64,000 nt of DNA from Promethearchaeota archaeon (GTDB lineage: Archaea; Asgardarchaeota; Lokiarchaeia; Sigyniarchaeales; SOKP01): positions 128,001 through 192,000 of the forward strand of contig JAHPZJ010000028.1 in the NCBI GenBank assembly GCA_019058245.1, read 5' to 3'. The notes beneath the pieces are model-generated. The model was not told where the DNA came from and made no database searches. It saw only the letters and a program-made list of their open reading frames with translations. Shown piece after piece: positions 904 to 43,373 of this stretch; positions within the stretch are counted from its first letter, which is position 1; each line of letters starts with the position of its first letter. The translations under genes and the position numbers were made by a program.

Positions 904-3195
904 TCAAAAATATTTTTTAGAAATTTGTTTTGTAGCTTCAAGAATGTCCTCATGAATTTGCTTAGACTCAATTTCTCGTTCTATTTCTTCAGAAACAATA
1001 TCCTTTTCATCCCTTAATTTAAAGTTTATAATTGAAAAATTATCATCTAAATAAAAGGGATAAAATTTTATCCCAGATCCACTATAAAATTTGAAAAAGA
1101 ATTCATAAAAATTCAACCTCAACGCGTTTAAAAAGACTAATAATCCTTCTATAAGAATTACCACTATGTTGCCGAAAATTAAACCTACAGTTTTTGCAAA
1201 TTCAACCCAAAATCCCGATCCTTCAATTAAACCTGCCATCGCTTGGATGGCAATCATTAGAGCTATATGGGCTAGAGCTAATGCTAATAATCGTATATAA
1301 GAAGCAACATTGCTTATTACGGATAATAATGTTTCAAACGTTTCCATTGACCCTTCACTTACAAGATCTTTATATGATTCAGCTTTCATATACGATACAC
1401 CTAGAATTTTGCCAATAGGTTTTAAAATAAGGAGTAATATGCCTGGAATTAAGGGTAATAATATTGGAAATGGTGGTGATAGCCATGCATTTATGTCAAA
1501 TTTATAAGTTAAAATTAAAATCGTACCACCAATTAATAATAATATCTTAACGAATGAATCTGTAAATGCTAAATATTTTCTCCCTTGTCTCCAATAATTC
1601 AAAAACTGTATTACCCAACCTAAATTAATATGGATCACACCAACTAGTATTGCAAATATTAAAACCGCTGTTACACGCGAAATTGGATCATGTAATGACA
1701 TATTTAATATAGGAATTGTAATTGGATTTAGTTGAAGAAAAACGTGACCTCCAATTTCTATGTTATGCATACCAAAAAATTCACCATATAAAAAACCAAA
1801 TAAAACAGCCCCCAGACCACAATAAAAGATTATCCAACAAAAATTTAAAAAGTCAGTTCCTTTTTTATTTTTAAAAATGACAGCACCAATTAATCCTGCT
1901 ATAATTAAAACTATCCCATGACCAATGTCCCCGAACATCAACCCAAATAAAATAGGAAATATAATTGCTAAAAATGGTGTTGGATCAATTTCAGAATAAG
2001 AAGGAGTACCATACATTCTTGTTAATGTTTCGAAAGGTCTTACAAAAAAATTATTTTTCATAAGTCGTGGTGTTTTTTCTTTTAAATCTTTATCTGTTGC
2101 TATGTTACTCGAGATATCCTCTTTATTCTTAAGTTTATCTTTTGAATATGATTTTTCTTTTAATTTTTCTTCCCGTTCTGTTTCTTTAACTTTTATAATG
2201 GTTTTTTTTGATATTTCCATAGAATGAATATTTATCTTATCTTTGAAAACATCAATTAATCTTTTACGAACTTCCTCCTTTCGGTCCACAGGAATAAAAA
2301 ATTGAAGCTTTGAAGCATTTGATGATATATCTCTGAATTGTTGCTCAGCCCAATTATAATCTTCAATATTTTGAACAATTTCATACATAGCGGCGAATAA
2401 TACTATATTATCATCTTTAAGCCGCTCCAATTCTTTTTCATACTTAATTAAAGTATCTGAAATAAAATTAATTTCACTTTTAATTCTAGGAAAGTTAATC
2501 CCATCAGTAAGTAGATATTTTTTTAAAATGGGCACTTCTTCTACTTGAATAACCCGAAGTTTTTCTTTTAGATCTTCTTCTTTATCTTTAGGATAAATTG
2601 TGAAAAATGCTATTCGATCTTCTGAAATTTTTTGGGTGTCAAAAAAATTTGGAAAATTTGAAAAATCAAAAAGATTTTTTATGAAAACTAAATTTTTTGA
2701 AAAAGTGGTATAAACTCTAAAAGATAGCTGTTTCAATTGTGATAAATTATCTCGAGATACCCCAATATTATTTAGAAAATTATAACTTTCTTCAATAATT
2801 TTCATTTTATCTAGTTCAATATTAACTTTTGCTATATATTTTCCTAATTCCGCTACACGATTATTATAGAAATTAATCTCTTCTGAAATATAGTTTATTA
2901 ATTCAAGGATATCTTTAACAACAAACTCTTTTCTATCTTTTTTTTTAACATTTAACTTTTGTATATCATTATCAGTAATATTAAGCATTTTAAATAATCT
3001 TTCTATCTCAGCTCTTAATTTTTTTATTTTTTCAGAGAAAAGATCTCCTTTTTCGATATTTTCAATTATTTTTTCTTTTGGTCTAATATGAACTACTTTT
3101 ATTTGAGCTAATTCTTGTAACAGAAAATCTTTATAATCATTATGGATAGCTACATCAAATAAGCACATTACCGTCTTGGTTACCATCGCATTCAC
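904..3195 (-). CDS. atpI: A/V-type ATPase subunit I (a)
   Basis: Motifs YGTPSYSEIDPT, FGLMFGDIGHG, SYIRLLALALAH (essential Arg) and LRLNFYEFF. The start may be the ATG at 3186. Confidence 0.96.
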   Translation of the reverse strand: MNAMVTKTVMCLFDVAIHNDYKDFLLQELAQIKVVHIRPKEKIIENIEKGDLFSEKIKKLRAEIERLFKMLNITDNDIQKLNVKKKDRKEFVVKDILELINYISEEINFYNNRVAELGKYIAKVNIELDKMKIIEESYNFLNNIGVSRDNLSQLKQLSFRVYTTFSKNLVFIKNLFDFSNFPNFFDTQKISEDRIAFFTIYPKDKEEDLKEKLRVIQVEEVPILKKYLLTDGINFPRIKSEINFISDTLIKYEKELERLKDDNIVLFAAMYEIVQNIEDYNWAEQQFRDISSNASKLQFFIPVDRKEEVRKRLIDVFKDKINIHSMEISKKTIIKVKETEREEKLKEKSYSKDKLKNKEDISSNIATDKDLKEKTPRLMKNNFFVRPFETLTRMYGTPSYSEIDPTPFLAIIFPILFGLMFGDIGHGIVLIIAGLIGAVIFKNKKGTDFLNFCWIIFYCGLGAVLFGFLYGEFFGMHNIEIGGHVFLQLNPITIPILNMSLHDPISRVTAVLIFAILVGVIHINLGWVIQFLNYWRQGRKYLAFTDSFVKILLLIGGTILILTYKFDINAWLSPPFPILLPLIPGILLLILKPIGKILGVSYMKAESYKDLVSEGSMETFETLLSVISNVASYIRLLALALAHIALMIAIQAMAGLIEGSGFWVEFAKTVGLIFGNIVVILIEGLLVFLNALRLNFYEFFFKFYSGSGIKFYPFYLDDNFSIINFKLRDEKDIVSEEIEREIESKQIHEDILEATKQISKKYF

Positions 3196-3842
3196 ATTTT
3201 TATAAACTTTTTTTCATAAATTAGATCTTTTATACTTTTTAATCTTACAAAATTCTCTCGTTGAACTTCTTCTAATATATCTTTTATTTTTTTAATTTCT
3301 TGACTAAGTGAGGGGATAATAATATTATTTAATCCATGGATTCTTCGAGTTATTTTTTTAAAACTTAGCGAATGTTTTAACATTACATCTTCAATTTCTG
3401 CCAAATGAATCATTATATTGAAAAGATTTGTTAATTTTTTTATTAAGTCATCTAGATAATGACTTGTATATTCAAAAGAATAAGCGGGAAGTCTTTCTTT
3501 TCTTATTAGTTCATATTCTATCTCTGGTACTACATTACCAATCTTTTTTACATAGTTAACATTGATTGTTGGTGTGAATTGGATTTTGCTCAAACTGCTA
3601 ATTATTTTAAAATTGTTCTTTCCCATTTCCATATAAGTCTGTTGCAAGCAAATCATGACTTCTATGAATAGATTTAGGTAGTTTTTACGTTGTATTTTAT
3701 AGTCACTCCATAACTTTTTAATTGCAAATATTAATTGTTCTTGTTTAAATTCTAAAAAGCTCTTACCTTTCACAGCAAAGTTTAATCTTTTCTGTAGACT
3801 CATTAAGTTTGTTTTTGTAGGTTTGAATTCTCTAAAACTAAT
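3192..3842 (-). CDS. atpD: A/V-type ATPase subunit D (probable ATT start at 3842; ORF track starts at 3803)
   Basis: C-terminal TRRIHGLNNIIIP...RENFVRLK motif. The in-frame upstream extension SFREFKPTKTNL holds the conserved N-terminal KPT motif of subunit D, and AGGTG lies 10 nt before the ATT. Confidence 0.9.
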   Translation of the reverse strand: MSFREFKPTKTNLMSLQKRLNFAVKGKSFLEFKQEQLIFAIKKLWSDYKIQRKNYLNLFIEVMICLQQTYMEMGKNNFKIISSLSKIQFTPTINVNYVKKIGNVVPEIEYELIRKERLPAYSFEYTSHYLDDLIKKLTNLFNIMIHLAEIEDVMLKHSLSFKKITRRIHGLNNIIIPSLSQEIKKIKDILEEVQRENFVRLKSIKDLIYEKKFIKM

Positions 3843-3849
3843 AGTTGTA

Positions 3850-5241
3850 TTACACCTGCTCTTGATAATATTTTTTAATAAATTCTTGATGAATTCTATA
3901 TAATTGATTTTTTGGTAAAGCAGATAAAGCTTTCCAAGCTATTTTAAAAGTTGTTGTAAAATCTCGATTCTCATTTACATCTTGGTTTAAAAATTCTTTT
4001 TCGAAGATTTCTCCAAACTTTAACGTAGATCTTTGATTAAAGTTCAATCCATCTTCACCAACAATTGATATAAGATCTCTAACTTCAAGAGTATTTGAAT
4101 ATGAAGCTAATAATTGGGAACTTATATCCTTGTGATCCTCTCTTGTTGTATTTTCACCAATTGCATCTTTCATAAGTCGAGATATAGAAGCTAAAACTTC
4201 AAACGGTGGATATATACCTCTTTTATGCAAATTCCTATTAAGGACTAATTGCCCCTCAGTAATATATCCTGAGGTGTCTGGAATTGGATGAGAGATATCA
4301 TCATTTGGCATTGTTAGAATAGGTATTTGAGTTATTGTTCCTTTTTTACCTTTTATTTTACCGGTTCGTTCATAAATTGAAGCAAAATCAGTGTATAGAT
4401 ATCCTGGATAACCTTTTCTACTAGGAATCTCTTCTTTTGCTGAGCTAAGTTCTCTTAATGCTTCAGCATAATTAGTCATATCTATTAAAATAACAAGAAC
4501 GTGCATATCTTTATCAAAAGCGAAATATTCTGCAGTAGTTAATGCTACTCTTGGAATTATTAAACGCTCCATTATTGGATCATCTGCAAAATTTATAAAT
4601 GAAATGATGTTTTGGATATTTCCACTTTCTTGAAATCTATTTAAAAAATAAATTGCTTCATCCTGAATAATTCCTATCCCACAAAAAATAATTAGAAAAG
4701 GTTCTTCTGTTAAAACTCTAGATTGTGTTACAATTTGAGCCGCTAGTGCATTATGTGGCATTCCTTGTCCACTAAATATAGGAAGTTTTTGCCCTCTTAT
4801 TAGCGTAAACAGTCCGTCAATAACAGACATACCTGTCTGGATTACCTCGGTTGGGTATTCTCTTGCGAATGGGTTAACTGGTGCTCCATTAATATCTCGT
4901 TCAACTTCTGTTATCAATTCAGATTCTAAAACCTTTTTAGTATTTATATCAATTGGTTTTCCCAGTGAATTGAATGTTCTACCAAACATATCATTTGAGA
5001 TTTTAACTTTAAAAGAAGCCTCTGTAAAAAGAATTTTAGAATTCTCTGAAGATAAACCACTTGTATCTTCAAATACTTCAACAACAATAGTGTCTTCATC
5101 TATTTTTACAACTTGACCAGTACGTTCTATTCCACCATCAGTTAATATTTTAACAATCTCCCCATATTGTGCATCATGTTCATTACTTAAGAATAACAAA
5201 GGTCCTACAATTTGTTCAATTTTTCCATAGATAATACTCAT
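3850..5241 (-). CDS. atpB: A/V-type ATPase subunit B
   Basis: Motifs [32 protein letters not shown] and SRLMK. Confidence 0.98.
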
Positions 5242-8477: not shown

Positions 8478-9536
8478 TTATTCAATTAAATGTAATTTTT
8501 CAAATTTTTCATGAATTATTTTTACTACTTTTGGAATAATATGAAATCTAATTTCATTTTCTTTTTTTATAATTAATTCTAAGATTCTGAATATTGTAAT
8601 TAAATCAATTTCACCCATACTAATTTTAAATTTTATAAAATAATAATGAAGATATAAGTCTTCAATTGAACCAATTAAATGTTCTCTATCAACTAGTTTC
8701 TGCTCAGAGCCTCTTTTTAATTCCCTAATATTATCAATGTATTCTTCAACTAGAGAGGTTAGAACATTCAGATCCTCAATACTTAATAAATAATTTATCT
8801 TACCTATATCTAAAAATAAATGATAATCAATTAGAAATTGAGACAATAATTCTTTTTCAATACCATTTTTTAAACCTCGAAAAATGATATTTAAATTATA
8901 AATTTCAGTCTTATATTTTACAAATGTCTCTATGATTTTTCTTTCTTGAGCTCTCAAATTATTTAACTGAATTATCATGTTTTCGTAGTAAAATTTATCC
9001 AAAAAAGCTTCTAAAACAAAAATCTCTCTGTATTTTTTAAAATACGAAATACCTTCACTTATAGGTATATTATACCTTGTTTTTTTCATAAAATATTGAA
9101 TTTCATCCAAAGACGAGATTTTAAGTAGATCCTCAATGAACTCTGTGTTATCTAAATACTCTTCTACAATAAAGTTAACCATTTTTTTCTTATCTTTAAT
9201 GTTTAATCCTAAAATTGAACCAATAATAATTTGTTTAATATTTATTATTTCAAATTTTAAGAGATAGAATTTTAGAAAAGTTTTCATATTTGATGGTGAG
9301 TAGAGCATTATTTTACCAACCATCTTAATATAGTTATGATAAAGAGCCATTTCAATATTTCCAATAGTTTTTTCTTTTACAGCCAGATCTGGATAGAAAG
9401 GATTAATAAATTCTAAAAGCGTATCAATATTATTTATTTTGTCAATATTAAGTAAATTATAATCATCAATTATCAGCGATCTTAAAAAACCTATTCTTAT
9501 AAATGTGTAAGAATAGGATGGGACGATTGAACTCGT
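8478..9536 (-). CDS. atpC: A/V-type ATPase subunit C (AC39/d family; probable ACG start at 9536)
   Basis: Motifs FEIINIK, LEAFLDKFYY and EIYNLNIIFRG. The in-frame upstream extension SSIVPSYSYTFIRIGFLRS resembles the subunit C N-terminus, and GGTGA lies 7 nt before the ACG. Confidence 0.85.
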   Translation of the reverse strand, partial: TSSIVPSYSYTFIRIGFLRSLIIDDYNLLNIDKINNIDTLLEFINPFYPDLAVKEKTIGNIEMALYHNYIKMVGKIMLYSPSNMKTFLKFYLLKFEIINIKQIIIGSILGLNIKDKKKMVNFIVEEYLDNTEFIEDLLKISSLDEIQYFMKKTRYNIPISEGISYFKKYREIFVLEAFLDKFYYENMIIQLNNLRAQERKIIETFVKYKTEIYNLNIIFRGLKNGIEKELLSQFLIDYHLFLDIGKINYLLSIEDLNVLTSLVEEYIDNIRELKRGSEQKLVDREHLIGSIEDLYLHYYFIKFKISMGEIDLITIFRILELIIKKENEIRFHIIPKVVKIIHEKFEKLHLIE

Positions 9537-22294: not shown

Positions 22295-23218
22295 TCAAAT
22301 TAAACTATTTATTTCTTTTAATCTTGTCCTTAGAGTAATTTCAGAAATATTCGCTATCTTACATATATGTTTTTGTGTTCGAAATTCTCCATTTTTTTTT
22401 GATACATAATACAGAGATGCAGCAGCAATTCCTTTAGGGTCTCTTCCTGATGTTACTAGTCCTTTCATTTTACTCTCCTTAATAATTTTTATAGCATTAT
22501 TCCGACTATTTAGAGATAAATCTAATTCGTCATAAAATTTATCTATATAGTCTTGAGGTGTAAAATTGTGAAGTCTTATATTTAATACTGGAAGAATCTT
22601 GGCAAATAGTATATTATAACAAGAAACAAACATTTTTTTAGAAATTTGAAATGCGGAAACAAGTTCTCCAATTATTATTGGGATTTTGTGCCTTTTTAGC
22701 GCAAAATAAAGAGATGCACACAGTATTCCATTAATTGTTCTTCCTTTTGTTAGTTTTGCTTTAGCAGCAATAATATAGATCCTGAAAGTACTTTCGATAA
22801 TATATTTTGGAAGATTCAAATGAGTTTTGATCTGATCTAATTTCGATATTGCAATCCATAAATTCCTTTCAAGTCCATTTACTAAACCTCTATTTATTTT
22901 AGATAATCTTTTATAATTTCTTAAAGCAATTGGAGTTAAAAAATTTCCTTTCCCATCTGAATTACCCTTAATTATAGTACGAGGGCCAAATGGGGAACGT
23001 ACAGGTTCAAAATTAATAAAATTTTTTTTCTCCCCAAAATACATTTTCCGGTCAGGCTTATTAGAAATTATTCTAGATTGGATTATTCCACAATTTGTAC
23101 AAACTTCGTATCCATTAGAAGAAATTATATTTGGATTTGAACAACATTTTGGTTCTTCTTTTTTTAAAAATGCTCTATTGTAATTGTTTCTGGTTATTAA
23201 CTGTATTATTTTTATCAC
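22295..23218 (-). CDS. tfb: Transcription initiation factor IIB (TFB) paralog
   Basis: N-terminal Zn ribbon (CC...CTNC) and two cyclin repeats (ERNL, KGRT, SGRDPKGIAAASLY, SEITLRTR). Confidence 0.92.
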   Translation of the reverse strand: MIKIIQLITRNNYNRAFLKKEEPKCCSNPNIISSNGYEVCTNCGIIQSRIISNKPDRKMYFGEKKNFINFEPVRSPFGPRTIIKGNSDGKGNFLTPIALRNYKRLSKINRGLVNGLERNLWIAISKLDQIKTHLNLPKYIIESTFRIYIIAAKAKLTKGRTINGILCASLYFALKRHKIPIIIGELVSAFQISKKMFVSCYNILFAKILPVLNIRLHNFTPQDYIDKFYDELDLSLNSRNNAIKIIKESKMKGLVTSGRDPKGIAAASLYYVSKKNGEFRTQKHICKIANISEITLRTRLKEINSLI

Positions 23219-23238
23219 ACCTTATTTTAAAATTCAAA

Positions 23239-32798: not shown

Positions 32799-33275
32799 TT
32801 ATTTTCTAATAATTAGGATATCACAGGGTACATGTCTTAAAACTTTCTCTGCAACAGAACCAAGTAAGATTTCTTCTAAAATAGAATGAGTACCTTTACT
32901 CCCAATAATAACGAGATCAATATTTTCTTCCTTTACTGTTTTTATAATGTAAGATACTGGTCCATCTGAAAAAACTAACCTACCTTCAATTTGTATTCCT
33001 TCTTCTAAAAAGATTTCTTTAGCTCTATCTATAATAGCTTGAGCATTTAATTCATATACTTCTTTTATTCTTTTTATATCAGGATCTGAAATCCTGTAGA
33101 TATGAGGTATGGCAAATGATGGTGCCATAAACATTCCATTTGGTTCTGCATGATGTTCTACTGAATGAAATACAATCACTTCACAATTACTTGATTTTTG
33201 AATATCTATTGATTTTAATAAAGCCTTATAAGAAAGTTCTGATCCATCAATACCAATTAATATTTTTTTATAGAT
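32799..33275 (-). CDS. Universal stress protein (probable ATC start at 33275)
   Basis: C-terminal DLVIIGSKG...LLGSVAEKVLRHVPCDILII. The in-frame upstream extension (M)YKKILIGIDGS is the canonical USP N-terminus, and AGGTGA lies 6 nt before the ATC. Confidence 0.93.
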   Translation of the reverse strand: MYKKILIGIDGSELSYKALLKSIDIQKSSNCEVIVFHSVEHHAEPNGMFMAPSFAIPHIYRISDPDIKRIKEVYELNAQAIIDRAKEIFLEEGIQIEGRLVFSDGPVSYIIKTVKEENIDLVIIGSKGTHSILEEILLGSVAEKVLRHVPCDILIIRK

Positions 33276-33391
33276 AATAAATCACCTTATTGAACTTTTA
33301 TTACTAAAAACAAATAAACTTCTATTAAAGAATATTGTTTATAATTTTTAAAAAAAACAAAAAATATTTAGTATTATAGAAATGAAATAAA

Positions 33392-34672
33392 TTGATCATG
33401 ATTAATAAAAAAGAATCTCAGGAAAATTCTAGTTTAAACAAAGAAAGATTTCTCAATTATATAAATACTTTTGACTTTCCGAGATTAGCTGGAACTGAAG
33501 GAGAGAAAAAAGCTGTTAATCTAACAATAACAACTTTCAAAGAAAAAGATTTTAATAAGGATCAAATTTTTACCCAAAATTTTGATTTCTCAACATTTTA
33601 TTCAACATCTATGATGAAAATAATCATTCTAATGAATTTAATCTTTATAGCAATTATTTATTTAATAAAATATTTGTATCCCTTTCTAACTTTTTTTTCT
33701 ATCTTGATTTTATTATTAATTTTTTTTTCTATGCTTAAAGTATTAAAACATCCTGAGCTTAAGGGGTTCTGGGAAAAATATTTTGGACATTTCGTTAGTG
33801 CTACAAATGTTTTTGTAAAAATACCTGCTACTAACGTGTCATCTCAAAAAATAGGAAATATAATAGTTTCAGCTCATTTAGATTCGAAATCTCAATCTTT
33901 TAAAACTATATGGAGGGTAATTTTAATTAGAATATGGTTATATAGCGAAATTTTCTTGTTTTTGTTTTATATCTTCTTTTTAATAGATTACCATTTTTAT
34001 GTGCAAATAAATAGAATTTTAGAAATTTTATGGGAAATTTCTATTATTATTGGAACAATTTTGACAGTTGCTTCAAATGTCTTTTTATTATTTCTTAATA
34101 TTAAAAATGATTCACCAGGCTCCTTAGATAACGCTACTGGTATGGCAATTGTATTTGAGTTGAGTTCTTTTTTTAAAAGTAATCCACTTCATAATTTTAA
34201 TTTATGGTTTTGTCAATTTTCAGCAGAAGAGATAGGAACAATGGGTTCTAGAGAATTTTTAGATATGTATGATAAGAAATTTACTAAAAATTATACTTAT
34301 CAAATTAATTTTGATATGGTTTCAATAGCCAATAATAAGAGTAATTTTATAGAATATATCAAATCTTATGGCATTGTTCCAAGGAAAAAAATTTCACCAA
34401 TATTAAGTCAATATTTTATTAATTCAGCTGAAATTGAAAGGGTGAATTATCATGGATTTCATGTTGCTCTTGGTGCCCATACAGATTCAATACCCTTTCA
34501 TTTACGAAAATTTGATTCTATTGATATCACTACGAGAGCTGCAGCAAAATATACCCATAGTGCAGAAGATACTCCAGATAAAGTAGATCCCCAAATTCTC
34601 TTTGAGGTTTATAAGGTTGTTCGATTATTGATACAATCAATTGATAAAGACTATAATAAATTGATTAAATAA
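33392..34672 (+). CDS. Membrane-embedded M28 family metallopeptidase
   Basis: Motifs PRLAGT, SAHLDS, DNATG, AEEIG, NFDM and HS.EDT, with TM pairs inserted in the domain. Confidence 0.88.
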   Translation: MIMINKKESQENSSLNKERFLNYINTFDFPRLAGTEGEKKAVNLTITTFKEKDFNKDQIFTQNFDFSTFYSTSMMKIIILMNLIFIAIIYLIKYLYPFLTFFSILILLLIFFSMLKVLKHPELKGFWEKYFGHFVSATNVFVKIPATNVSSQKIGNIIVSAHLDSKSQSFKTIWRVILIRIWLYSEIFLFLFYIFFLIDYHFYVQINRILEILWEISIIIGTILTVASNVFLLFLNIKNDSPGSLDNATGMAIVFELSSFFKSNPLHNFNLWFCQFSAEEIGTMGSREFLDMYDKKFTKNYTYQINFDMVSIANNKSNFIEYIKSYGIVPRKKISPILSQYFINSAEIERVNYHGFHVALGAHTDSIPFHLRKFDSIDITTRAAAKYTHSAEDTPDKVDPQILFEVYKVVRLLIQSIDKDYNKLIK

Positions 34673-34694
34673 ATCTATATAGTTTAGTTTTTCT

Positions 34695-36434
34695 TTAAAT
34701 GTGAAGTAAACGCACAATAGAGCCAAATCCTAATATCGTTGAGACTACTGAGCCAAAGAATATTTGAACAATTATAAAAGAACTTATCATAACAGAACTG
34801 AATTTATTAGTTCTTTCATAGATAATTGAGTTCATTACCATAACTGCTAAAAATATTAAATAGGTAACAAGCATCCCACTGATAAGAAATAATGTATTGG
34901 AAAAATAAATTAGTATAAAAATATTAATCATTTCCATTAATGATGTAATTATTGTTTTATTCGATGGAGATATTATAAATTTGAGATTAGGATAAATAAT
35001 TTTTCTATAAAAGATCTCCATGGCTAAATAAAATGGATAAATACTAAAAGTTAAAATATATGACAAAAAATTTCTTGGAGAAAAAAATGCGAAAGGATAG
35101 GAAAGTGATAGAGCAATATAAAGTGATAAAAATATAAAAGAGGCAAACAATGAAAACAAAATAACATTTTTGTGAAACTGCGATTTAATTTCGTCTTTCA
35201 ACCTTAATTCTATGTATGTAGCTATTTTTTCACCTTTAACTTCAGCAGTAATTATATATTTTATTATTATATATAGAAAATACAATAAAAGGATAAGAAT
35301 AGGAGTAACAAGCAATCCAAGTATTCCTATCGTTTTTAACATAGATATCCAAAGAGTTAGAAAACCTATAAAGTATAAACAGACTATAATAACACTCTTT
35401 TTATTTGAATTTTTTTTTGTTTTATCACTATTCTTTATTTCATAATCCTTTTTTGAATAATCTTTAATTGAAAAATATTTAAATGAATATTTTATGATTG
35501 ATAAAGTCGTTAAAAATAATCCTATAAAGCTTAAACCTAGTAAAATGTAAGTTATCTGGTAGGATAAGTTAATAGGCCCATTATTTGTTTCGGAATGGAA
35601 AAAATTTAATTCAAACCATTTTATTGTTTCAATAATTACTTCATCTGAAAATAAATAGTGGGGGCCTCCAAATAAATGGTTTTTAATTTCTAATAGTTTA
35701 CAATTTGTTAAGTTTTTCGCGACTAAGGCATTTTTTTCAAAGGGAACTGTTGTATCATAAATGGATTGAATAACCAATAAATTAGTTGGATTATTTTCAT
35801 TAATGATTTTGGTGGGTATAAAATCCATAAATGGATGATCTTCAGTAATTCCAAAATAAGACGCAGAAAAGTTAACTAGACCTGCCCAAGTAACGGTTGT
35901 CTTAAATCTATCATCCATTGCACTATTCATTAAAACCACCATACCCCCTAATGAATGCCCAATTAATCCAATTTGAGATATATTTATCCTTGCAAAAAAA
36001 GACATTTGTGATAACTTATCTAAAAATCTAGAACAATCTTGAGCTATAGCAGGAACATTCGTCTGGTTCATATAAGGATTTGGGTTTATCTCCAAAATGT
36101 GACCCCCACTTTCTCCCTCGCCTCTATAGTCGATACTTGCAACATAAAATCCTCTTTTAGTAAATTCATTGGGTATTCTCGGATCTAAATCTCTTTGACT
36201 ACCTAATCCATGAGCAAAGATTATCAATGGGGATTTTTGCTGAAACTGCAATTTTTTTGTCGGATGGTAAAGATTTGCATAAAGAGTGCTATTATATGAT
36301 TTAAAAGTTATCCTCTCGTAAAATATATAACTTTCAGATCTTAAAGCAAATAAAGAACTTACAGAAATCATAAAAAATATAATTGAAGATATCAAAAACC
36401 AATGATGTTTCCACATTATTTTCTTTTTAATCAT
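34695..36434 (-). CDS. Alpha/beta hydrolase with N-terminal anchor and C-terminal multi-TM domain
   Basis: Motifs HGLG, DYRGEGES and GHSLGG nucleophile elbow, followed by several TM helices. Confidence 0.88.
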   Translation of the reverse strand: MIKKKIMWKHHWFLISSIIFFMISVSSLFALRSESYIFYERITFKSYNSTLYANLYHPTKKLQFQQKSPLIIFAHGLGSQRDLDPRIPNEFTKRGFYVASIDYRGEGESGGHILEINPNPYMNQTNVPAIAQDCSRFLDKLSQMSFFARINISQIGLIGHSLGGMVVLMNSAMDDRFKTTVTWAGLVNFSASYFGITEDHPFMDFIPTKIINENNPTNLLVIQSIYDTTVPFEKNALVAKNLTNCKLLEIKNHLFGGPHYLFSDEVIIETIKWFELNFFHSETNNGPINLSYQITYILLGLSFIGLFLTTLSIIKYSFKYFSIKDYSKKDYEIKNSDKTKKNSNKKSVIIVCLYFIGFLTLWISMLKTIGILGLLVTPILILLLYFLYIIIKYIITAEVKGEKIATYIELRLKDEIKSQFHKNVILFSLFASFIFLSLYIALSLSYPFAFFSPRNFLSYILTFSIYPFYLAMEIFYRKIIYPNLKFIISPSNKTIITSLMEMINIFILIYFSNTLFLISGMLVTYLIFLAVMVMNSIIYERTNKFSSVMISSFIIVQIFFGSVVSTILGFGSIVRLLHI

Positions 36435-36833
36435 ATAATTAATACATCAGGAATTATTGCTATTTTTCTAATTTTATTTATGTTAGATACAATTTAATAA
36501 TCTTTTAGATTAGAATTTAAAAAAAAATAATGCAACTTAAAAAAATTAAATGATTATTTTATAAAAATATCTTTTCTAGTTTAAGAAATTTCAGAATAAA
36601 TATTCATTTATTAATTGAATTTTAGTTTTAATAGAAATAATTCAACAAATTCTCGCTAATCTTATTATTTATTATTTAAATTCTAATTTGAGATTAAAAA
36701 TATAGAACAATTGACCATTTCGTTTATATAATGTTATTATGGCAGTAATTTTCTTTATAATTTGTAAAGAGTATCTTTATCAACCATGTTTTTTCTATAT
36801 TGATCAATAAACGATATTGAGAGAAGCTGATAT

Positions 36834-36893
36834 ATGTTGTATAATAAAATTTTAGTAGCTGTTGAAGAATCAAAGGATGCAATAGATGCGTAG
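36834..36893 (+). pseudogene. Universal stress protein N-terminal remnant
   Basis: ATG at 36834 encodes MLYNKILVAVEESKDAIDA-stop, matching the USP beta1/alpha1 start. The rest of the gene is missing. Confidence 0.55.
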
Positions 36894-36964
36894 AAAATAG
36901 AAGTTATAGTTCTGTTGTTTAATTAAATAATATGAATAAGTATTTAATTGCAAGTATGATTTAA

Positions 36965-38080
36965 ATGAAAATTGGAAAGATAAAAGGAATTGTTATTTCA
37001 TTACATATAAGTACTTTACTCATTATTGGGTTAGTAGGTTTTTATGCTGCTGATTTTTATGCTACTCTAACTCAAGAAAGTAATATTTTTAATTTAATAA
37101 TAGTTGGTTTAATCAATGGGTTAATTATTTTATTTTCAATTCTGATTCATGAGTTAACACATTCTTTAATTGCTCAAAAATATGGGTTAAAAGTTTCAGA
37201 AATTGAATTATATCTATTTGGAGGAGTTTCTAAAATAGAACAAGAGCCTAATAATCCAAAGAGTGAGTTAGTTATTTCTATTTTTGGTCCAATCTCCAGT
37301 TTATTGATTGGTGCTATTTTTTTAGCTACTTTATTTTTAATACCATTCCGTATTAATGCTATTCTTATAGTAACTCTTTTGTATTCTGGAATAACTAATA
37401 TTGGATTAGGAATATTTAATCTGATTCCAGCATATCCTATTGATGGTGGAAGGGTACTACGAGCAATACTATGGAATAAAAGACATGATATGCTTTCTGC
37501 TACGAAAACAGCATCAAAAGTTGGACATTATATTGCATATGGATTAATGGGATATGGATTTATATCAATGCTTTTCTTTGGCTTACTAAATGGTTTATGG
37601 TTAGTAATTATTGCTTCATTTTTAAATAATCAGTCAAGACATGCGTATATTCAAACTTTAAATGAATTTACTTTGTCGAAACTAAGTGTTAAACAGTTGA
37701 TAAGATTTCCCGAAGTTGCAATTCCATTTAACAAAACTGTAAGTGAAGCAATTCAGAATTATTTTATTCCATATAATAAAATATATTTTCCAGTTATACA
37801 GGGAGAAAATATAGTTGGTATTATACATCTTGAAGATATAAAAAGGGTTTCAATAAGTCAGAGGGATGAAATAATTGTAGGGTATTTGATGAAAAAAATA
37901 TCTCAATTCCCAACACTCAGTCAGAATAAAACAGGAAAGGATGCTTTAATAGAATTAAAGAAAATGAAAGATAGACCACATTTAGTAATTATTAAAGATA
38001 ATATTCAAAATAATATTATTGGCTATATAGGCGAAGATGATATTCTAACATCTCTAAAATTTTTTCAAAATAACATTTAG
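36965..38080 (+). CDS. Site-2 protease (M50) with C-terminal CBS pair
   Basis: HELTH zinc motif, FNLIPAYPIDGGR, and CBS-like C-terminus. Confidence 0.95.
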   Translation: MKIGKIKGIVISLHISTLLIIGLVGFYAADFYATLTQESNIFNLIIVGLINGLIILFSILIHELTHSLIAQKYGLKVSEIELYLFGGVSKIEQEPNNPKSELVISIFGPISSLLIGAIFLATLFLIPFRINAILIVTLLYSGITNIGLGIFNLIPAYPIDGGRVLRAILWNKRHDMLSATKTASKVGHYIAYGLMGYGFISMLFFGLLNGLWLVIIASFLNNQSRHAYIQTLNEFTLSKLSVKQLIRFPEVAIPFNKTVSEAIQNYFIPYNKIYFPVIQGENIVGIIHLEDIKRVSISQRDEIIVGYLMKKISQFPTLSQNKTGKDALIELKKMKDRPHLVIIKDNIQNNIIGYIGEDDILTSLKFFQNNI

Positions 38081-38515
38081 AGAAAATAAATTCCTTCCGT
38101 GAGAAAAAATAATTACTCTTTATACTACTAATATGTTTTATAATAAGAATTTATTATTTGAAATGGTTTAACGCTATTTATAACATTCTTAAGATTTTTA
38201 TATTTCTTTCTATAGTTTATAAAAACTACACTAAAAACTTATTTTTCAAATTGTTTCTATATGTAATTCTTCTGGTGTAAAGTAGAGATTTATTAATCTC
38301 AACTGCGAAATTAGTAGTTTGCTAAAACTTTCATATATTGATATCATGTAATTTAATAAAATTTAGATTTATAAGCAATATTAATAAATTTATTAAAAAT
38401 GATAAAAAAAAGAATTTTATTTTTTCAATTTATTAAAAGTAAGCTTATATAGTCATTTCTCTGTTCTACTAATAGAGTTATTTGTTCACAATTAAAAATA
38501 ATGAGGTGAAAAATA

Positions 38516-38953
38516 ATAATAATTTTATTAGATAGAATATCACTCCATGAATATTCAGCCTCTATTACAACTTATAATCTACAGAACGGTGGAACATTTT
38601 CAGCTGATCTTACAGTAATTCTCGTCTTTCTTCTGATTTGGTTTACCTGTGGATCAATTTTAGCATATTGGGTAAAAAGTGATATGAGAAAGAGAAATCT
38701 AGAAAATAGCTATATGATTTTCTTAATTGTATTAACTAGTTTAATTGGGTTTACATTTTATATAATCTCCACTCGTGGTGATAATGAAGTAGAATTTTTG
38801 GAACAAGTTGAGAATTTCCCGGATATTGATGAATTTATTAAAGATGAGTTAGAAATAGAATTTCAAGATGAAATTGAAGAAATTAACGAAGAAGAACTTG
38901 AAGATATTATTGAAACAATTATAGAAGTTCCTGAAATTAGAATATTATACTAA
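38516..38953 (+). CDS. Small membrane protein with acidic C-terminal tail (probable ATA start near 38516; ORF track starts at 38684)
   Basis: The frame is open from 38510 and adds a TM helix (VILVFLLIWFTCGSILAYWVKSDMRKR, PLDc_N-like). GAGGTGA at 38503-38509 precedes ATA codons. Confidence 0.65.
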   Translation: MIILLDRISLHEYSASITTYNLQNGGTFSADLTVILVFLLIWFTCGSILAYWVKSDMRKRNLENSYMIFLIVLTSLIGFTFYIISTRGDNEVEFLEQVENFPDIDEFIKDELEIEFQDEIEEINEEELEDIIETIIEVPEIRILY

Positions 38954-38977
38954 ATCATAAAATACAATAGATTTAAA

Positions 38978-40219
38978 TTAAACTTTATAATTTATTACTG
39001 TTTTTTTTAATAATTTTATGTAATCCATTAGATGTCGTGTCATTAAAAAATTATTTTTAACATGCTCTCTTCCTGCTTTTCCTATTTTTTCAGCTAGATT
39101 AGGATTTTCTAATAATTTCAAAACGCTCTCGGCACATTCTTCTATATTATTTACTAAATATCCCGTTTTACCATCAATAATTTGTTGTGGGATGCCTCCT
39201 ACATTTCCTCCTACAACTGGTGTGCCTTTCCATAAGGCTTCACTAACAGTTAAAGCAAAGCCTTCTCTAATTGATTTTTGAATAACAACCTTTGAGATTG
39301 TTTGCAGCGTATTTACTAGTAAACTACTTTCAGCAGTACTTATAATGATATCTGGTTCATTTTTAATATGTTTTAATAATTCCTCATAAATTTTTTGTCC
39401 CTCTGGATCATCTTGAGCCATATTCCCTAACAATATCAATTTACAATCGAATTCTTTTTTTATTATTTTAAATGCTTTTACTACTCCAATAGGGTCTTTC
39501 CATTTATCAAATCTGGAAATTTGAGTAATTATAGGTTTATCATTTTTAATGCCATACTTTCTAAGATAATGAGTAAGTCTTTTTTGACTTAATTTCTTAT
39601 TCTTATCATTAAAAGGATTAATAGAGGGCATTATAATTTCCTGAGGTAGATTAACAATTTGTTTGTATTTTTCTTCAGATACAATCATTGCATCATATTT
39701 ATTAATGAATTTTGAGATAAAATTCCAAACAATTGGATTTCTATTACTAAGATCTATATGGCATCTCCAAATCCAAGGTTGTCTTTTTCTATAAAAATTA
39801 ATAATTGGTAATGGTTGTGGGTCATGGATTATTACACAATCTTTATCACTTAATTGATTAAAAATGGAATTTCTTCGATTAACTTCAAGATATATTCTTT
39901 TTCTCTTACCTGATAGACTTTTTTCAGCACCTTGTAAAGCATTGTGAATTATTTTTGTTGTTGTAAAGAATTCTGGACTTCCTTTAATTTGATGCCATTC
40001 TGTATCAATCCCTAATTCATTCATCATTATTATCAAATCATTTAATATTTCAACGACACCACCACCATATAAAGTAGAATTTACATGAACAATTTTTTTA
40101 TTAAATAGAGGTTTAGATTCCTCGATTAAATCATTAATATAATCAAAACCAACTATTTGAGAGAATTGTTTTAATAGTATTTCATTTCCATTAAATTTCT
40201 CTAAATTTTTTGAATACAT
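38978..40219 (-). CDS. treT: Trehalose synthase (glycosyl-transferring), GT4
   Basis: Motifs HVNSTLYGGGVVEIL, IHDPQP, WRCHID, SRFDKWKD and EGFALTVSEALWKG. Confidence 0.93.
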   Translation of the reverse strand: MYSKNLEKFNGNEILLKQFSQIVGFDYINDLIEESKPLFNKKIVHVNSTLYGGGVVEILNDLIIMMNELGIDTEWHQIKGSPEFFTTTKIIHNALQGAEKSLSGKRKRIYLEVNRRNSIFNQLSDKDCVIIHDPQPLPIINFYRKRQPWIWRCHIDLSNRNPIVWNFISKFINKYDAMIVSEEKYKQIVNLPQEIIMPSINPFNDKNKKLSQKRLTHYLRKYGIKNDKPIITQISRFDKWKDPIGVVKAFKIIKKEFDCKLILLGNMAQDDPEGQKIYEELLKHIKNEPDIIISTAESSLLVNTLQTISKVVIQKSIREGFALTVSEALWKGTPVVGGNVGGIPQQIIDGKTGYLVNNIEECAESVLKLLENPNLAEKIGKAGREHVKNNFLMTRHLMDYIKLLKKTVINYKV

Positions 40220-40256
40220 ACACTTTTACCCAAATTTTATTCATATTATTATTTTA

Positions 40257-42452
40257 TTAAGATAATTTACTTAATCCTTTTAATAAATTTCTAGAATCTT
40301 GAACTGAAAATAGATTGTATTTAGCACTGCTTCTTTCAAGTCCAATTCTTATTGAATATGTAGTTTTAGGAGCTATATTAAACATATCCTCATCAGTTTT
40401 ATCATCTCCTAAAATTAAAATAAAATCCCATTCTTCTTTAAATAATGTAGTTGAGATCGCATGTCCTTTATTTATCATAGCACTTTTTACTTCTACTACT
40501 TTATTTCCATCTAATACATTTAAATCAGTATTATAACAATAGTTCTCTAATATATTGATTAATTCTCTTGATCTAACATTACCTAAATCAAATTCTGCTT
40601 TTCTATAATGCCAAGCTAGACTATATTCTTTTTCTTCAATGAAGGAACCTGGTGTTCTGTATGTAAATTTCTCTAGGATCGGGAGTATATTATCTTTCCA
40701 TTCAGTCATTAAGATTTCAACCATTTTCCATTCTTTGTTTAGTTTTTTAGTCCAAATTCCATGTTCTGCGATTAACTCGATATTAATATCTTTAAACCAA
40801 ATATCTAATGTCTGTTTATCTCGTCCACTTACAATTATTACTTTATTCCTTTTATCGTTACTAATTTTTTTAAGAGTATTTAGGATTTCATCATCTGGTC
40901 TTGCGTGATCAGGATTCTTATAGAATTGTACTAAAGTACCATCATAATCTAAAATTATTAATCTTTTCTTGCTATTTTCATAGTCTTTTAAAAGATTTTC
41001 TTTAGATGTGGAAGATAAAAGTCTTAAGGTTTTATCTTGAGGTATAATTTTAGTTTCCTTAAGATTTTCAATAAAATCTTCAGCCCATCTTATAACATCA
41101 TAATTTTCAATCCGTTTTTGCATTTTTAATATTTTTCTTTTTTTACGTTCTTCTGGCATTTCAATTGCTTCCTTTAAAGCTTCAACGATTTGTTTTCTAT
41201 TATTTGTATTAATGATAATTGATTCATATAATTCTTTTGCGGCTCCTGCAGTTTCACTTAAAATTAATACACCATTTCCGTCAACTTTTGAAGAAATATA
41301 TTCTTTTGCTATAAGATTCATACCATCTCTTATAGGGGTAATGAGTGCTACATCAGCTATTCGATATAAAGATATTAATTGTTCTAAAGATAAAGGGCGA
41401 TGGATATACAATATTGGATTCCATTCAATAGTACTAAATCGTCCATTTATTTTTCCTACAAGTTCATCAATATCACTTTTTAAAACTTGATATTCCTCTA
41501 CTTTTGATCTAGATGGTGCAATCACAAAAATTAAAATAATCTTTTCTTGATAATTAGGATAAGATTTTAAAAACAATTCATAAGACAAGAGTCTCTCTAA
41601 AATACCCTTGGTATAATCCAATCTATCTAATGATAGAATAATTTTTCGTTCTCCTATTTCTTCTTTGATTCTTTGGCTTTCATTTAAAATTTCTGAACTT
41701 TGAGCTGTATTATGATATTTTTTATAATCAATTCCCATAGGGAAGCAATCTACTTTTATTGTTCTCCCTTGTAAATAAATTTTATTCATTTTTATATCCA
41801 ATCCTAAAATTCGATGAGTACTGCTTAAAAAATGCCTTTCATAATCATACGTGTGAAAACCTAGTAAGTCTGAACCTAAAAGACCTTCAAGAATTTCTTC
41901 TCGCCAAGGAATTAAACGAAAAATTTCATAAGAAGGGAATGGAATATGTAAAAAAAAACCGATAGTAGAGTCGTGGATACTCTGTTTTATAAGATTAGGT
42001 AATAGCATTAAATGATAGTCATGGACCCAAATAATATCATTTTGACGAAAAATTTGTAAAATTATTTTATGAAATTTTTTATTAATTGATTTATATGCTT
42101 CCCATAATTTATCATCAAAAGTAGTATATTGTATAAAGTAATGAAAAAGAGGCCAAATTGTTATATTACAAAAACCAGCATAAAATTCATCAATTTCCTT
42201 TTTTTTAAGGAATACGGGATAGAAATTAAATTTAGATATTAATTCTTTTTCTATTTCTTCTTTTTTATCTTCAATTAATTCTAATTCAATCCCAGGCCAA
42301 CCTATCCAAATGCTGTTATGAGTTTTATGAAAAGAGCTCAATCCTGTAGTTAATCCTCCTAAGCTTCTTTTAAAAATGACCTTATCATTTTCTATTTTAA
42401 TAGTTACAGGTAATCTGTTTGAAATAAAAATTAATTTATTTTTATTAGTCAT
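40257..42452 (-). CDS. Bifunctional trehalose-6-phosphate synthase/phosphatase (OtsA-OtsB fusion)
   Basis: GT20 motifs SNRLP, WVHDYHL, DRLDYTKG and DGMNL; HAD motifs LDYDGTL and GDDKTDE. Confidence 0.96.
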   Translation of the reverse strand: MTNKNKLIFISNRLPVTIKIENDKVIFKRSLGGLTTGLSSFHKTHNSIWIGWPGIELELIEDKKEEIEKELISKFNFYPVFLKKKEIDEFYAGFCNITIWPLFHYFIQYTTFDDKLWEAYKSINKKFHKIILQIFRQNDIIWVHDYHLMLLPNLIKQSIHDSTIGFFLHIPFPSYEIFRLIPWREEILEGLLGSDLLGFHTYDYERHFLSSTHRILGLDIKMNKIYLQGRTIKVDCFPMGIDYKKYHNTAQSSEILNESQRIKEEIGERKIILSLDRLDYTKGILERLLSYELFLKSYPNYQEKIILIFVIAPSRSKVEEYQVLKSDIDELVGKINGRFSTIEWNPILYIHRPLSLEQLISLYRIADVALITPIRDGMNLIAKEYISSKVDGNGVLILSETAGAAKELYESIIINTNNRKQIVEALKEAIEMPEERKKRKILKMQKRIENYDVIRWAEDFIENLKETKIIPQDKTLRLLSSTSKENLLKDYENSKKRLIILDYDGTLVQFYKNPDHARPDDEILNTLKKISNDKRNKVIIVSGRDKQTLDIWFKDINIELIAEHGIWTKKLNKEWKMVEILMTEWKDNILPILEKFTYRTPGSFIEEKEYSLAWHYRKAEFDLGNVRSRELINILENYCYNTDLNVLDGNKVVEVKSAMINKGHAISTTLFKEEWDFILILGDDKTDEDMFNIAPKTTYSIRIGLERSSAKYNLFSVQDSRNLLKGLSKLS

Positions 42453-42528
42453 TTAATCACTTGAAGAGTTCTTTTTATTATTATAATATAATTTTTTATT
42501 TCATATGAAAAAATTTCATGCTTATATT

Positions 42529-42735
42529 TTATTTTTTATCCCAATTTCTCATCTTTTCTAAATTTTTGAATTCTTCTCCTGGTGGATGATATATCTCCTT
42601 AGTTGATATATAAGAGTCTTTTATTTCATCCAGTAATGGCAATTCTTTACTACATGAATTACAAATTAGAATATTTTTAATATTTTTTTTACCTGGTCCT
42701 AAAAGTCCACCACATTTTTCGCAAAATTCAACTAT
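42529..42735 (-). CDS. Small zinc-ribbon protein resembling the N-terminal domain of TFS/RpoM (probable ATA start); missed by the ORF track
   Basis: Manual translation gives (M)VEFCEKCGGLLGPGKKNIKNILICNSCSKELPLLDEIKDSYISTKEIYHPPGEEFKNLEKMRNWDKK (68 aa). Confidence 0.75.
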   Translation of the reverse strand: MVEFCEKCGGLLGPGKKNIKNILICNSCSKELPLLDEIKDSYISTKEIYHPPGEEFKNLEKMRNWDKK

Positions 42736-43373
42736 GTTTAATTAAACATCTGATGTTTTATTGTTTTTTGTTTTTATAAGAATATTAATTCAAATTCTTC
42801 TTCTTTTTGATATCTCTAAACCATTTTTATAATTTTTTATGAATTACTAATATTAAATGCTTAAATATCCATTAGATATTATGTAAAATTAACCAAATTG
42901 ATTATATTACTAAAAATATCATAAATAAAGACCGAAAAATTTTTTTTTTTTTATTTTTGAATATCTTATTTGATACTGAGGTCAATTTAAAGTGATAATT
43001 AAGCTAAAAGGATATCAAATCATTTTTATATCTATTTTACTAAAAAAATTAGGATATTTAATTTTTTCTAAAAATAAAGAAAAATTATAAGATATTTTAA
43101 TTAATACTTTTACATATTCACTTATAATAGATATTTTGAAACGGAATTTTCTTCTTTTTTAAATATTTGATTTTTAATTTTTTTCTTCCCGATTAATGGA
43201 AATTCAAATATTTCCCTTGAGAATAAAGAACTTGACAAATTGATATTTTCCTTGAAATTTTTTCTATTAGATTAATAAGTTCTCGAAAATTTTATTAGAA
43301 CTTTATGATTTAATTTAAATTATAATTCTTTATTATCAAAAATAAATTATTAATTCATTATAGCTCTTATAAA

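Follow-up and report, generated by a model that had tools for sequence, protein, structure and literature searches.

Near-cognate starts in known systems and in the window

Near-cognate initiation and weak start sites on fidelity factors are already known from bacteria and eukaryotes. In bacteria, infC, encoding IF3, starts at AUU or AUC and is subject to translational autoregulation, and pcnB of E. coli starts at AUU; nevertheless, such codons each account for 0.004-0.024% of annotated starts and are found in two genes in E. coli (PMC5499595, PMC4705826). Frequent AUU and AUC starts have been described for Mycoplasma gallisepticum (PMC5499595). For eukaryotes, autoregulation of eIF1 by an AUG in poor context is attributed to Ivanov et al. 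(2010) in PMC6237735. In archaea, a review of initiation gives AUG, GUG and UUG only (PMC7531240), and near-cognate putative sites in Haloferax Ribo-seq data were set aside as possible false positives (PMC7261190). A literature search, largely without subscription papers, found nothing on near-cognate starts in Asgard archaea and no description of an archaeal fidelity-factor feedback. Here, we analyzed a stretch of 64,000 nucleotides (the window, part of contig C28, JAHPZJ010000028.1) from assembly GCA_019058245.1 of an uncultured Lokiarchaeial archaeon (3.09 Mb, 29% GC, 76% complete), in which six genes, three of them in the ATP synthase operon, very probably use ATA, ATT, ATC or ACG as real translation start. 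Throughout, ATG, GTG and TTG are referred to as canonical and ATA, ATT, ATC, CTG and ACG as near-cognate starts; source family and genus are labeled f1 and g1, the sister family f2, and Helarchaeales serve as relatives within the class. The nearest relative of the source genome, G024, is an independent assembly.

The genes and their Shine-Dalgarno (SD) motifs, scored by the SD:anti-SD duplex energy, are as follows.

32799..33275, minus strand: universal stress protein (USP) gene, 158 aa, start ATC 33275; PF00582 at residues 2-157; stop two codons upstream
33282..33287, minus strand: SD motif AGGTGA, located 6 nt ahead of the ATC of the USP gene and containing the in-frame stop TGA; duplex -10.2 kcal/mol
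38516..38953, plus strand: gene for a small membrane protein of 145 aa, starting at ATA 38516; first ATG reached at residue 57
38503..38509, plus strand: SD motif GAGGTGA of the membrane protein gene, its TGA being the in-frame stop; duplex -11.5 kcal/mol
42529..42735, minus strand: Rpb9/TFS-type N-terminal zinc ribbon gene, 68 aa, start ATA 42735; TAA two codons upstream
8478..9536, minus strand: atpC, subunit C of the A-type ATP synthase, 352 aa, start ACG 9536; GGTGA at 9548-9544; PF01992
7075..7803, minus strand: atpE, 242 aa, start ATA 7803; first TTG at residue 101; weak SD, -3.0 kcal/mol
3192..3842, minus strand: atpD, 216 aa, start ATT 3842; SD spacing 9; first ATG at residue 14
22295..23206, minus strand: TFB paralogue, probably starting at ATA 23206, with ATA 23209 and GTG 23218 as alternatives; PF00382

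In the first six genes, no ATG, GTG or TTG precedes the conserved N-terminus and an in-frame stop is located upstream of each near-cognate codon, while the first canonical codon is reached at residue 33 in USP (GTG), 57 in the membrane protein, 32 in the zinc ribbon protein (TTG), 63 in AtpC (ATG), 101 in AtpE and 14 in AtpD. Most of these genes have homologues with ATG at the equivalent codon. Moreover, the ratio of nonsynonymous to synonymous changes (pN/pS) is 0.26-0.48 before the first canonical codon and 0.24-0.45 in the remainder of the same genes, indicating that the extensions are coding and under purifying selection. Counting the TFB paralogue, 7 of about 50 window genes are affected, which makes the window richer than the genome average.

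A first-pass annotation made from the window sequence had placed the USP start at ATC 33275 and that of the membrane protein at ATA 38516, each 6 nt behind its SD motif, and both placements hold. Among the 20 USP copies read in the genus, 18 show ATT, ATC or ATA before Y-K/Q/N-K-I, the other two having GTG and TTG, respectively; in other families, this codon is mostly ATG, GTG, TTG or CTG. The membrane protein gene, for which no Pfam match was obtained, shows pN below pS over the first 55 codons and has a distant homologue with ATG behind GGTGA. In G024, a 1-nt deletion in the spacer immediately 5' of ATA bounds its coding start at this codon.

The zinc ribbon gene is the weakest of the near-cognate cases. 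Canonical codons are absent before residue 32, in line with the claim that only ATA can serve as start, and ATA is preceded by no SD motif (best duplex -1.6 kcal/mol); the four closest orthologues start with ATG, other copies in the family with ATA, ATT or CTG. TFS and Rpb9 cleavage factors possess two zinc ribbons within about 110-120 aa and a C-terminal acidic hairpin. The 68-aa product is not a full TFS, as it comprises the N-terminal ribbon only (PF02150 at 21.9 bits, below the cut-off of 25.2). Together with two large genes, the zinc ribbon gene lies in a block (window 38964-43084) for which the 100 kb syntenic in G024 yielded no match, which suggests a recent gain or loss.

For the TFB paralogue, the suspicion that a downstream ATA is the real start because GTG 23218 is embedded in the gene's SD motif is borne out by G024, which has GTA there and ATG opposite ATA 23206; the gene thus probably starts at the latter codon. 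The encoded protein (window 22295-23221) is a divergent TFB whose N-terminal zinc ribbon opens with CC instead of CxxC.

Within the ATP synthase operon, 11 genomes from 5 genera share the ACG of atpC at a single position, directly behind a stop in G064, while other genomes have ATG or TTG there. The atpE codon is ATA or ATT in all 8 same-genus genomes read and ATG in G055, G144 and G072, with pN/pS of the first 99 codons equal to that of the remaining gene. For atpD, a single-copy gene in nearly all genomes, ATT, ATA, ATC or ACG is found in 12 genomes of the family and ATG in G064, G072 and the sister family. Across the family, the operon's low-copy subunits C, D and E have near-cognate starts and A and B start with ATG or TTG. 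Tuning of subunit stoichiometry nevertheless fits only in part, as F and H, which are low-copy too, mostly start with ATG. That atpC has kept its ACG against AT pressure speaks for selection favoring a weak start. Adjoining the operon, G024 carries a second, diverged atpA (L104-L105, contig C27 at about 71988-73742).

Genome-wide rate and distribution among lineages

In 44 genes of the source genome, the upstream in-frame stop is the TGA of GGTGA itself, and the third codon, 6 nt past this motif, is canonical in 17 (ATG 8, GTG 3, TTG 6) and near-cognate in 21 (ATA 13, ATT 4, ATC 2, CTG 1, ACG 1), summing up to 38 of 44, with other codons in 6. In contrast, other codons account for 35-42 of the 44 genes when five further positions are examined, so that the pattern exceeds chance. 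After the weaker [ACT]GTGA, ATG prevails (30/77) and ATA, ATT and ATC (ATH) occur at background. Likewise, with the best SD site per gene taken at a spacing of 5-7 nt, the codons most enriched among all behind 507 strong sites are ATG, TTG, GTG, CTG, ACG, ATC and ATA, with near-cognates found 113 times versus 59.9 expected (p=2e-11), whereas medium SD sites show no excess. The raw excess of 53 genes makes up one in four starts at strong SDs. ATA is the commonest near-cognate start in the source genome.

When correcting for sites occupied by real starts, about 80 cases with a strong and 35 with a medium SD are obtained, corresponding to about 4% of the 2,690 called genes. A strict homology test resulted in 17 of 364 genes (4.7%) once six genes in which a canonical codon follows at most 4 codons past the core boundary, and one probable selenocysteine split, had been taken out by hand. 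Hence, the rate is about 4-5% of genes, and both values are lower bounds, as a GTG inside the SD or an absent SD hides cases. Near-cognate starts have a median SD duplex energy of -6.5 kcal/mol, compared with -2.6 kcal/mol at ATG (p=8e-4), a contrast inflated by the partial choice of near-cognate positions by their SD. Three other procedures were abandoned: an earlier homology test with a narrow window gave many false cases and was replaced by the stricter version, an unconstrained expectation-maximization covering all 61 codons assigned weight to decoys when samples were small, and raw genome-wide counts of SD, spacer and codon without gene calls showed no signal, not even for ATG, and are therefore unusable for comparing genomes.

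Further affected genes include those for the ribosomal proteins uS14, for which no canonical start is possible in 5 of 5 same-genus genomes, and uL15, for which this is true in 3, as well as, by identity read from sequence, eL21, eL34, aIF5A, eS26, an HdrC-like protein and small GTPases. The predicted tolerance of ATH and ACG starts at high frequency thus stands for intact, essential genes, but not as a general laxity, since the cases are concentrated behind strong SDs. In bacteria, by comparison, such codons are rare, while in the archaeal family they add up to about 4-5% of genes, ACG included. Animal mitochondria use ATH starts as well. As in these organelles and in Mycoplasma, an AT-rich genome is combined with many ordinary genes starting at ATH; in contrast to both, the organism is an archaeon with a genome of 3-5 Mb, the standard internal code, the aIF1/aIF2 machinery and a conserved ACG. 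Excluded from the start-codon count were HdrA-like genes interrupted by a TGA in frame, which probably encodes selenocysteine (source genome, contig C17 near 88743; G024, L118-L120).

For comparison, control samples of 200-400 kb each were used, with 400 kb for the sister-family genome G038. The latter and G049 of the same family are single-contig genomes of 4,324,194 and 6,035,313 bp, respectively, which we take to be those of P. syntrophicum MK-D1 and L. ossiferum B35. As controls are small, pooled f1 loci were partly fetched via genes already known to have near-cognate starts and related genomes are not independent, the p-values are too strong: the excess behind strong SDs recurs in G024 (21 versus 8.0 expected, p=2e-5) and in other f1 loci (39 versus 18.2, p=3e-6), whereas none is seen in G038 (3 versus 8.8), other f2 loci (1 versus 3.4), Helarchaeales (11 versus 10.6) and Sulfolobaceae (8 versus 8.0). 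The strict test gave, after curation, about 4/97 for G024, 4/70 for Helarchaeales genome G046, 1/142 for G038 and 0/74 for Sulfolobaceae. The frequency in the source genome is thus, as had been anticipated, higher than in G038 and Sulfolobaceae (p=0.005, kin not being independent). Similarly, near-cognate starts in the ribosomal protein cluster amount to 10/228 in f1 and 4/466 in other Asgards (p=0.003, with the same dependence among kin). Judging from these comparisons, the trait belongs to family f1, may be weakly present in Helarchaeales too, and is sporadic elsewhere rather than Asgard-wide. The proposed test in a cultured Lokiarchaeon would likely miss it, since neither the sister-family loci nor the 400 kb sampled from what is probably MK-D1 showed it.

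Beyond Lokiarchaeia, ATC is the start codon of RNP1/Rpp29 in a pair of f18 genomes (L064 and L065; G171 and G181), and uS3 starts at CTG in G209 (L073) and probably at ATC in G197 (L067). Frames broken near the 5' end in uS3 of G012 (L090) and uL18 of G051 (L093) are probably assembly frameshifts, not odd starts.

aIF1 and the initiation machinery

The gene for initiation factor aIF1 is found in 48 of 53 genomes of the genus and in 137 of 161 of the class. Its loss in the lineage was considered, as it is absent from the source assembly, and rejected because the whole region is missing, including the 20 kb surrounding it in G024, and the gene is present in 48 of 53 genomes of the genus. In 28 f1 genomes, aIF1 cannot start with ATG, GTG or TTG, and a further 7 have an in-frame GTG a few codons upstream with ATT or ATA at the homologous codon. 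Accordingly, the homologous start codon is ATT, ATC or ATA in all 35 f1 genomes read, covering ten genera, and ATG in none. Outside f1, ATA is found in two Helarchaeales families, f14, f20 and one f2 genus, CTG in f9, TTG in G038, and ATG in G049, in several other families and, beyond the class, in 13 of 13 loci, of which 11 belong to named non-Asgard archaea. Near-cognate aIF1 starts thus occur in 5 of 18 other Asgard families, which, compared with 4/466 ribosomal protein starts, marks aIF1 as special.

As aIF1 of Sulfolobus rejects AUU mRNA in vitro (PMC4705826; PMC6237735), an AUU-started aIF1 gene could constitute a natural negative feedback loop like that of infC. In both cases, a start-codon proofreading factor is itself encoded from a near-cognate AUU behind an SD motif, and such AUU, AUA or AUC starts are read by the initiator tRNA, presumably also in the archaeal family. 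The aIF1 fold, however, is unrelated to IF3, and the feedback is proven for infC while it would apply to aIF1 by analogy. Conversely, eIF1 is a true homologue (SUI1 family) with its own weak start site, but there it is an AUG in poor Kozak context reached by scanning, whereas the aIF1 codon itself is non-AUG and SD-guided. The remaining features agree with known archaeal initiation, which is SD-guided and employs aIF1, aIF1A, aIF2 and a canonical anti-SD. In contrast to the alternative sites in Haloferax, near-cognate codons are the sole starts of essential genes in f1.

The claim that the odd starts bear on start-codon fidelity in Asgard archaea holds insofar as aIF1 itself has a near-cognate start, while a broken fidelity factor was not found and the trait is not Asgard-wide. 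aIF1 of the genus retains the zinc knuckle and the basic loop. Of the unusual substitutions looked for, a Tyr-to-Trp change in loop 1 was found, but it is common to Asgards whose aIF1 starts at ATG and does not track the trait. The initiator tRNA of G024 retains A1-U72, the three G-C pairs and the CAU anticodon (introns parsed by eye). The anti-SD is canonical in the genus, whose 16S rRNA is assembled at the 3' end only, and in f2. In aIF2-gamma, the G motifs are intact and about ten substitutions are family-specific, one of them just past switch I (GYA to GYS).

The initiator tRNA gene of G024 (L314, contig C3, minus strand near 5012) bears an anticodon-loop intron and apparently two more in the variable/T arm, because of which a 3'-half search pattern misses it; introns are also present in the D-loop in G049 and in the anticodon-loop in G038. 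The N-terminus of aIF2-gamma is fused to an HHH_5 helix-hairpin-helix domain in g1, g21 and g22 (L306:232-1767 of G024; L356, L358, L361-L369), while g12 has a short Cys/His finger and f2 mostly lysine-rich extensions. This fusion was discarded as a cause, as it does not track the trait.

Proposed mechanism, rival explanations and annotation

Taken together, SD-anchored near-cognate starts with a tolerance set by aIF1 are a likely explanation as a whole. A strong SD:anti-SD duplex would hold the mRNA on the 30S subunit and thereby place a codon one base off AUG (AUA, AUU, AUC, ACG, rarely CUG) in the P site about 5-7 nt downstream, where ordinary Met-tRNAi (CAU), delivered by aIF2, would accept it, so that the protein begins with Met. 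aIF1 might set the tolerance and, being started at AUU, repress its own synthesis as IF3 does; its loop would settle where SD-anchored AUH and ACG starts work. AT-biased mutation could then turn ATG into ATA or ATT wherever a strong SD compensates, with a few starts, such as ACG in atpC and ATT in aIF1, retained because a low or regulated output is selected for. The feedback on aIF1 through its near-cognate start, proposed by analogy, may equally well be right or wrong, and the chances appear just as balanced for the wider proposition that this autoregulation keeps stringency in f1 so low that a small percentage of genes, some of them essential, run on AUA, AUU, AUC or ACG. If true, start-codon identity would be an aIF1-dependent means of tuning output, and the fixed AUU start on aIF1 is a direct candidate for an archaeal version of the IF3/eIF1 fidelity-factor feedback.

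Several observations weigh against this explanation. The support for real initiation is drawn entirely from sequence comparison, and aIF1, aIF2-gamma, 16S rRNA and initiator tRNA, being absent from the 76% complete source assembly, were read in relatives only. Some near-cognate starts (atpE, zinc ribbon, eS26) have no good SD, the first two being among the six cases in 64 kb listed in the first-pass annotation. Furthermore, the ribosomal protein clusters of f14 and f20, both with ATA in aIF1, have no near-cognate starts in 15 and 20 genes, respectively, while f18, with ATG in aIF1, shows an ATC start in RNP1, so that the link between the aIF1 start and general tolerance is imperfect.

A less probable, albeit possible, alternative is that the f1 machinery is structurally less stringent, due to altered aIF1, aIF2, initiator tRNA or 30S P site, with the aIF1 start as a by-product. 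The lower score of the order's aIF1 on PF01253, compared with most other Asgards, would fit, as might the substitutions in aIF2-gamma of f1 and its HHH_5 fusion in three genera. On the other hand, the retained aIF1 motifs, the loop change shared with ATG-start Asgards, the tRNA hallmarks kept in G024 and the canonical anti-SD all argue against it, and a by-product should have reverted to ATG in some genomes, as in atpD and atpE, while aIF1 is never ATG in 35 genomes. Reassignment of ATA to Met, as in many mitochondria, would account for ATA being the commonest near-cognate start. However, internal ATA aligns to Ile in 52% and to Met in 3% of cases, like ATT and ATC, while ATG aligns to Met in 46%; ATA evidently still codes for Ile, and this code variant, which also leaves ATT, ATC and ACG unexplained, is refuted.

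Editing of the mRNA to AUG before translation, C-to-U for ACG and A-to-I for AUA, is highly improbable. ACG-to-AUG editing does occur in plant organelles, and conservation of ACG in atpC across genera despite AT pressure would be compatible with it, but deamination cannot make AUG from ATT or ATC, and the atpD codon swaps among ACG, ATT, ATA, ATC, TTG and ATG between relatives. Similarly remote is the assumption of pseudogenes, start-loss mutations or assembly errors, with no protein being made. For the zinc ribbon gene, whose ATA is private to the source genome and not preceded by an SD, decay is plausible, though less likely than not. For the others, it is largely refuted, since these codons recur in G024, assembled independently, and in other genera, the genes are single-copy and essential, and purifying selection acts before the first canonical codon. 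In light of SD-anchored near-cognate initiation, a family close to the ancestor of eukaryotes that needs AUA, AUU, AUC and ACG in essential genes would extend the archaeal rule of AUG, GUG and UUG.

With starts at ATA, ATT, ATC or ACG, such proteins are shortened by ordinary gene finders, as the first-pass annotation had foreseen. AtpC of the window is on record with 290 instead of 352 aa, thus lacking 62 aa, and that of G024 with 309 aa. Among 120 database matches each, 47 of AtpC are below 340 aa and 49 of aIF1 are without the first Cys pair, some possibly being contig-end fragments. Many Lokiarchaeal proteins in public records are thus truncated, which affects marker genes and claims of domain loss. 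Many aIF1 calls have 84 aa and are devoid of the zinc knuckle, while NCBI also holds 105-aa calls beginning at ATT; these calls recover some ATT starts, but not the ACG of atpC in G024.

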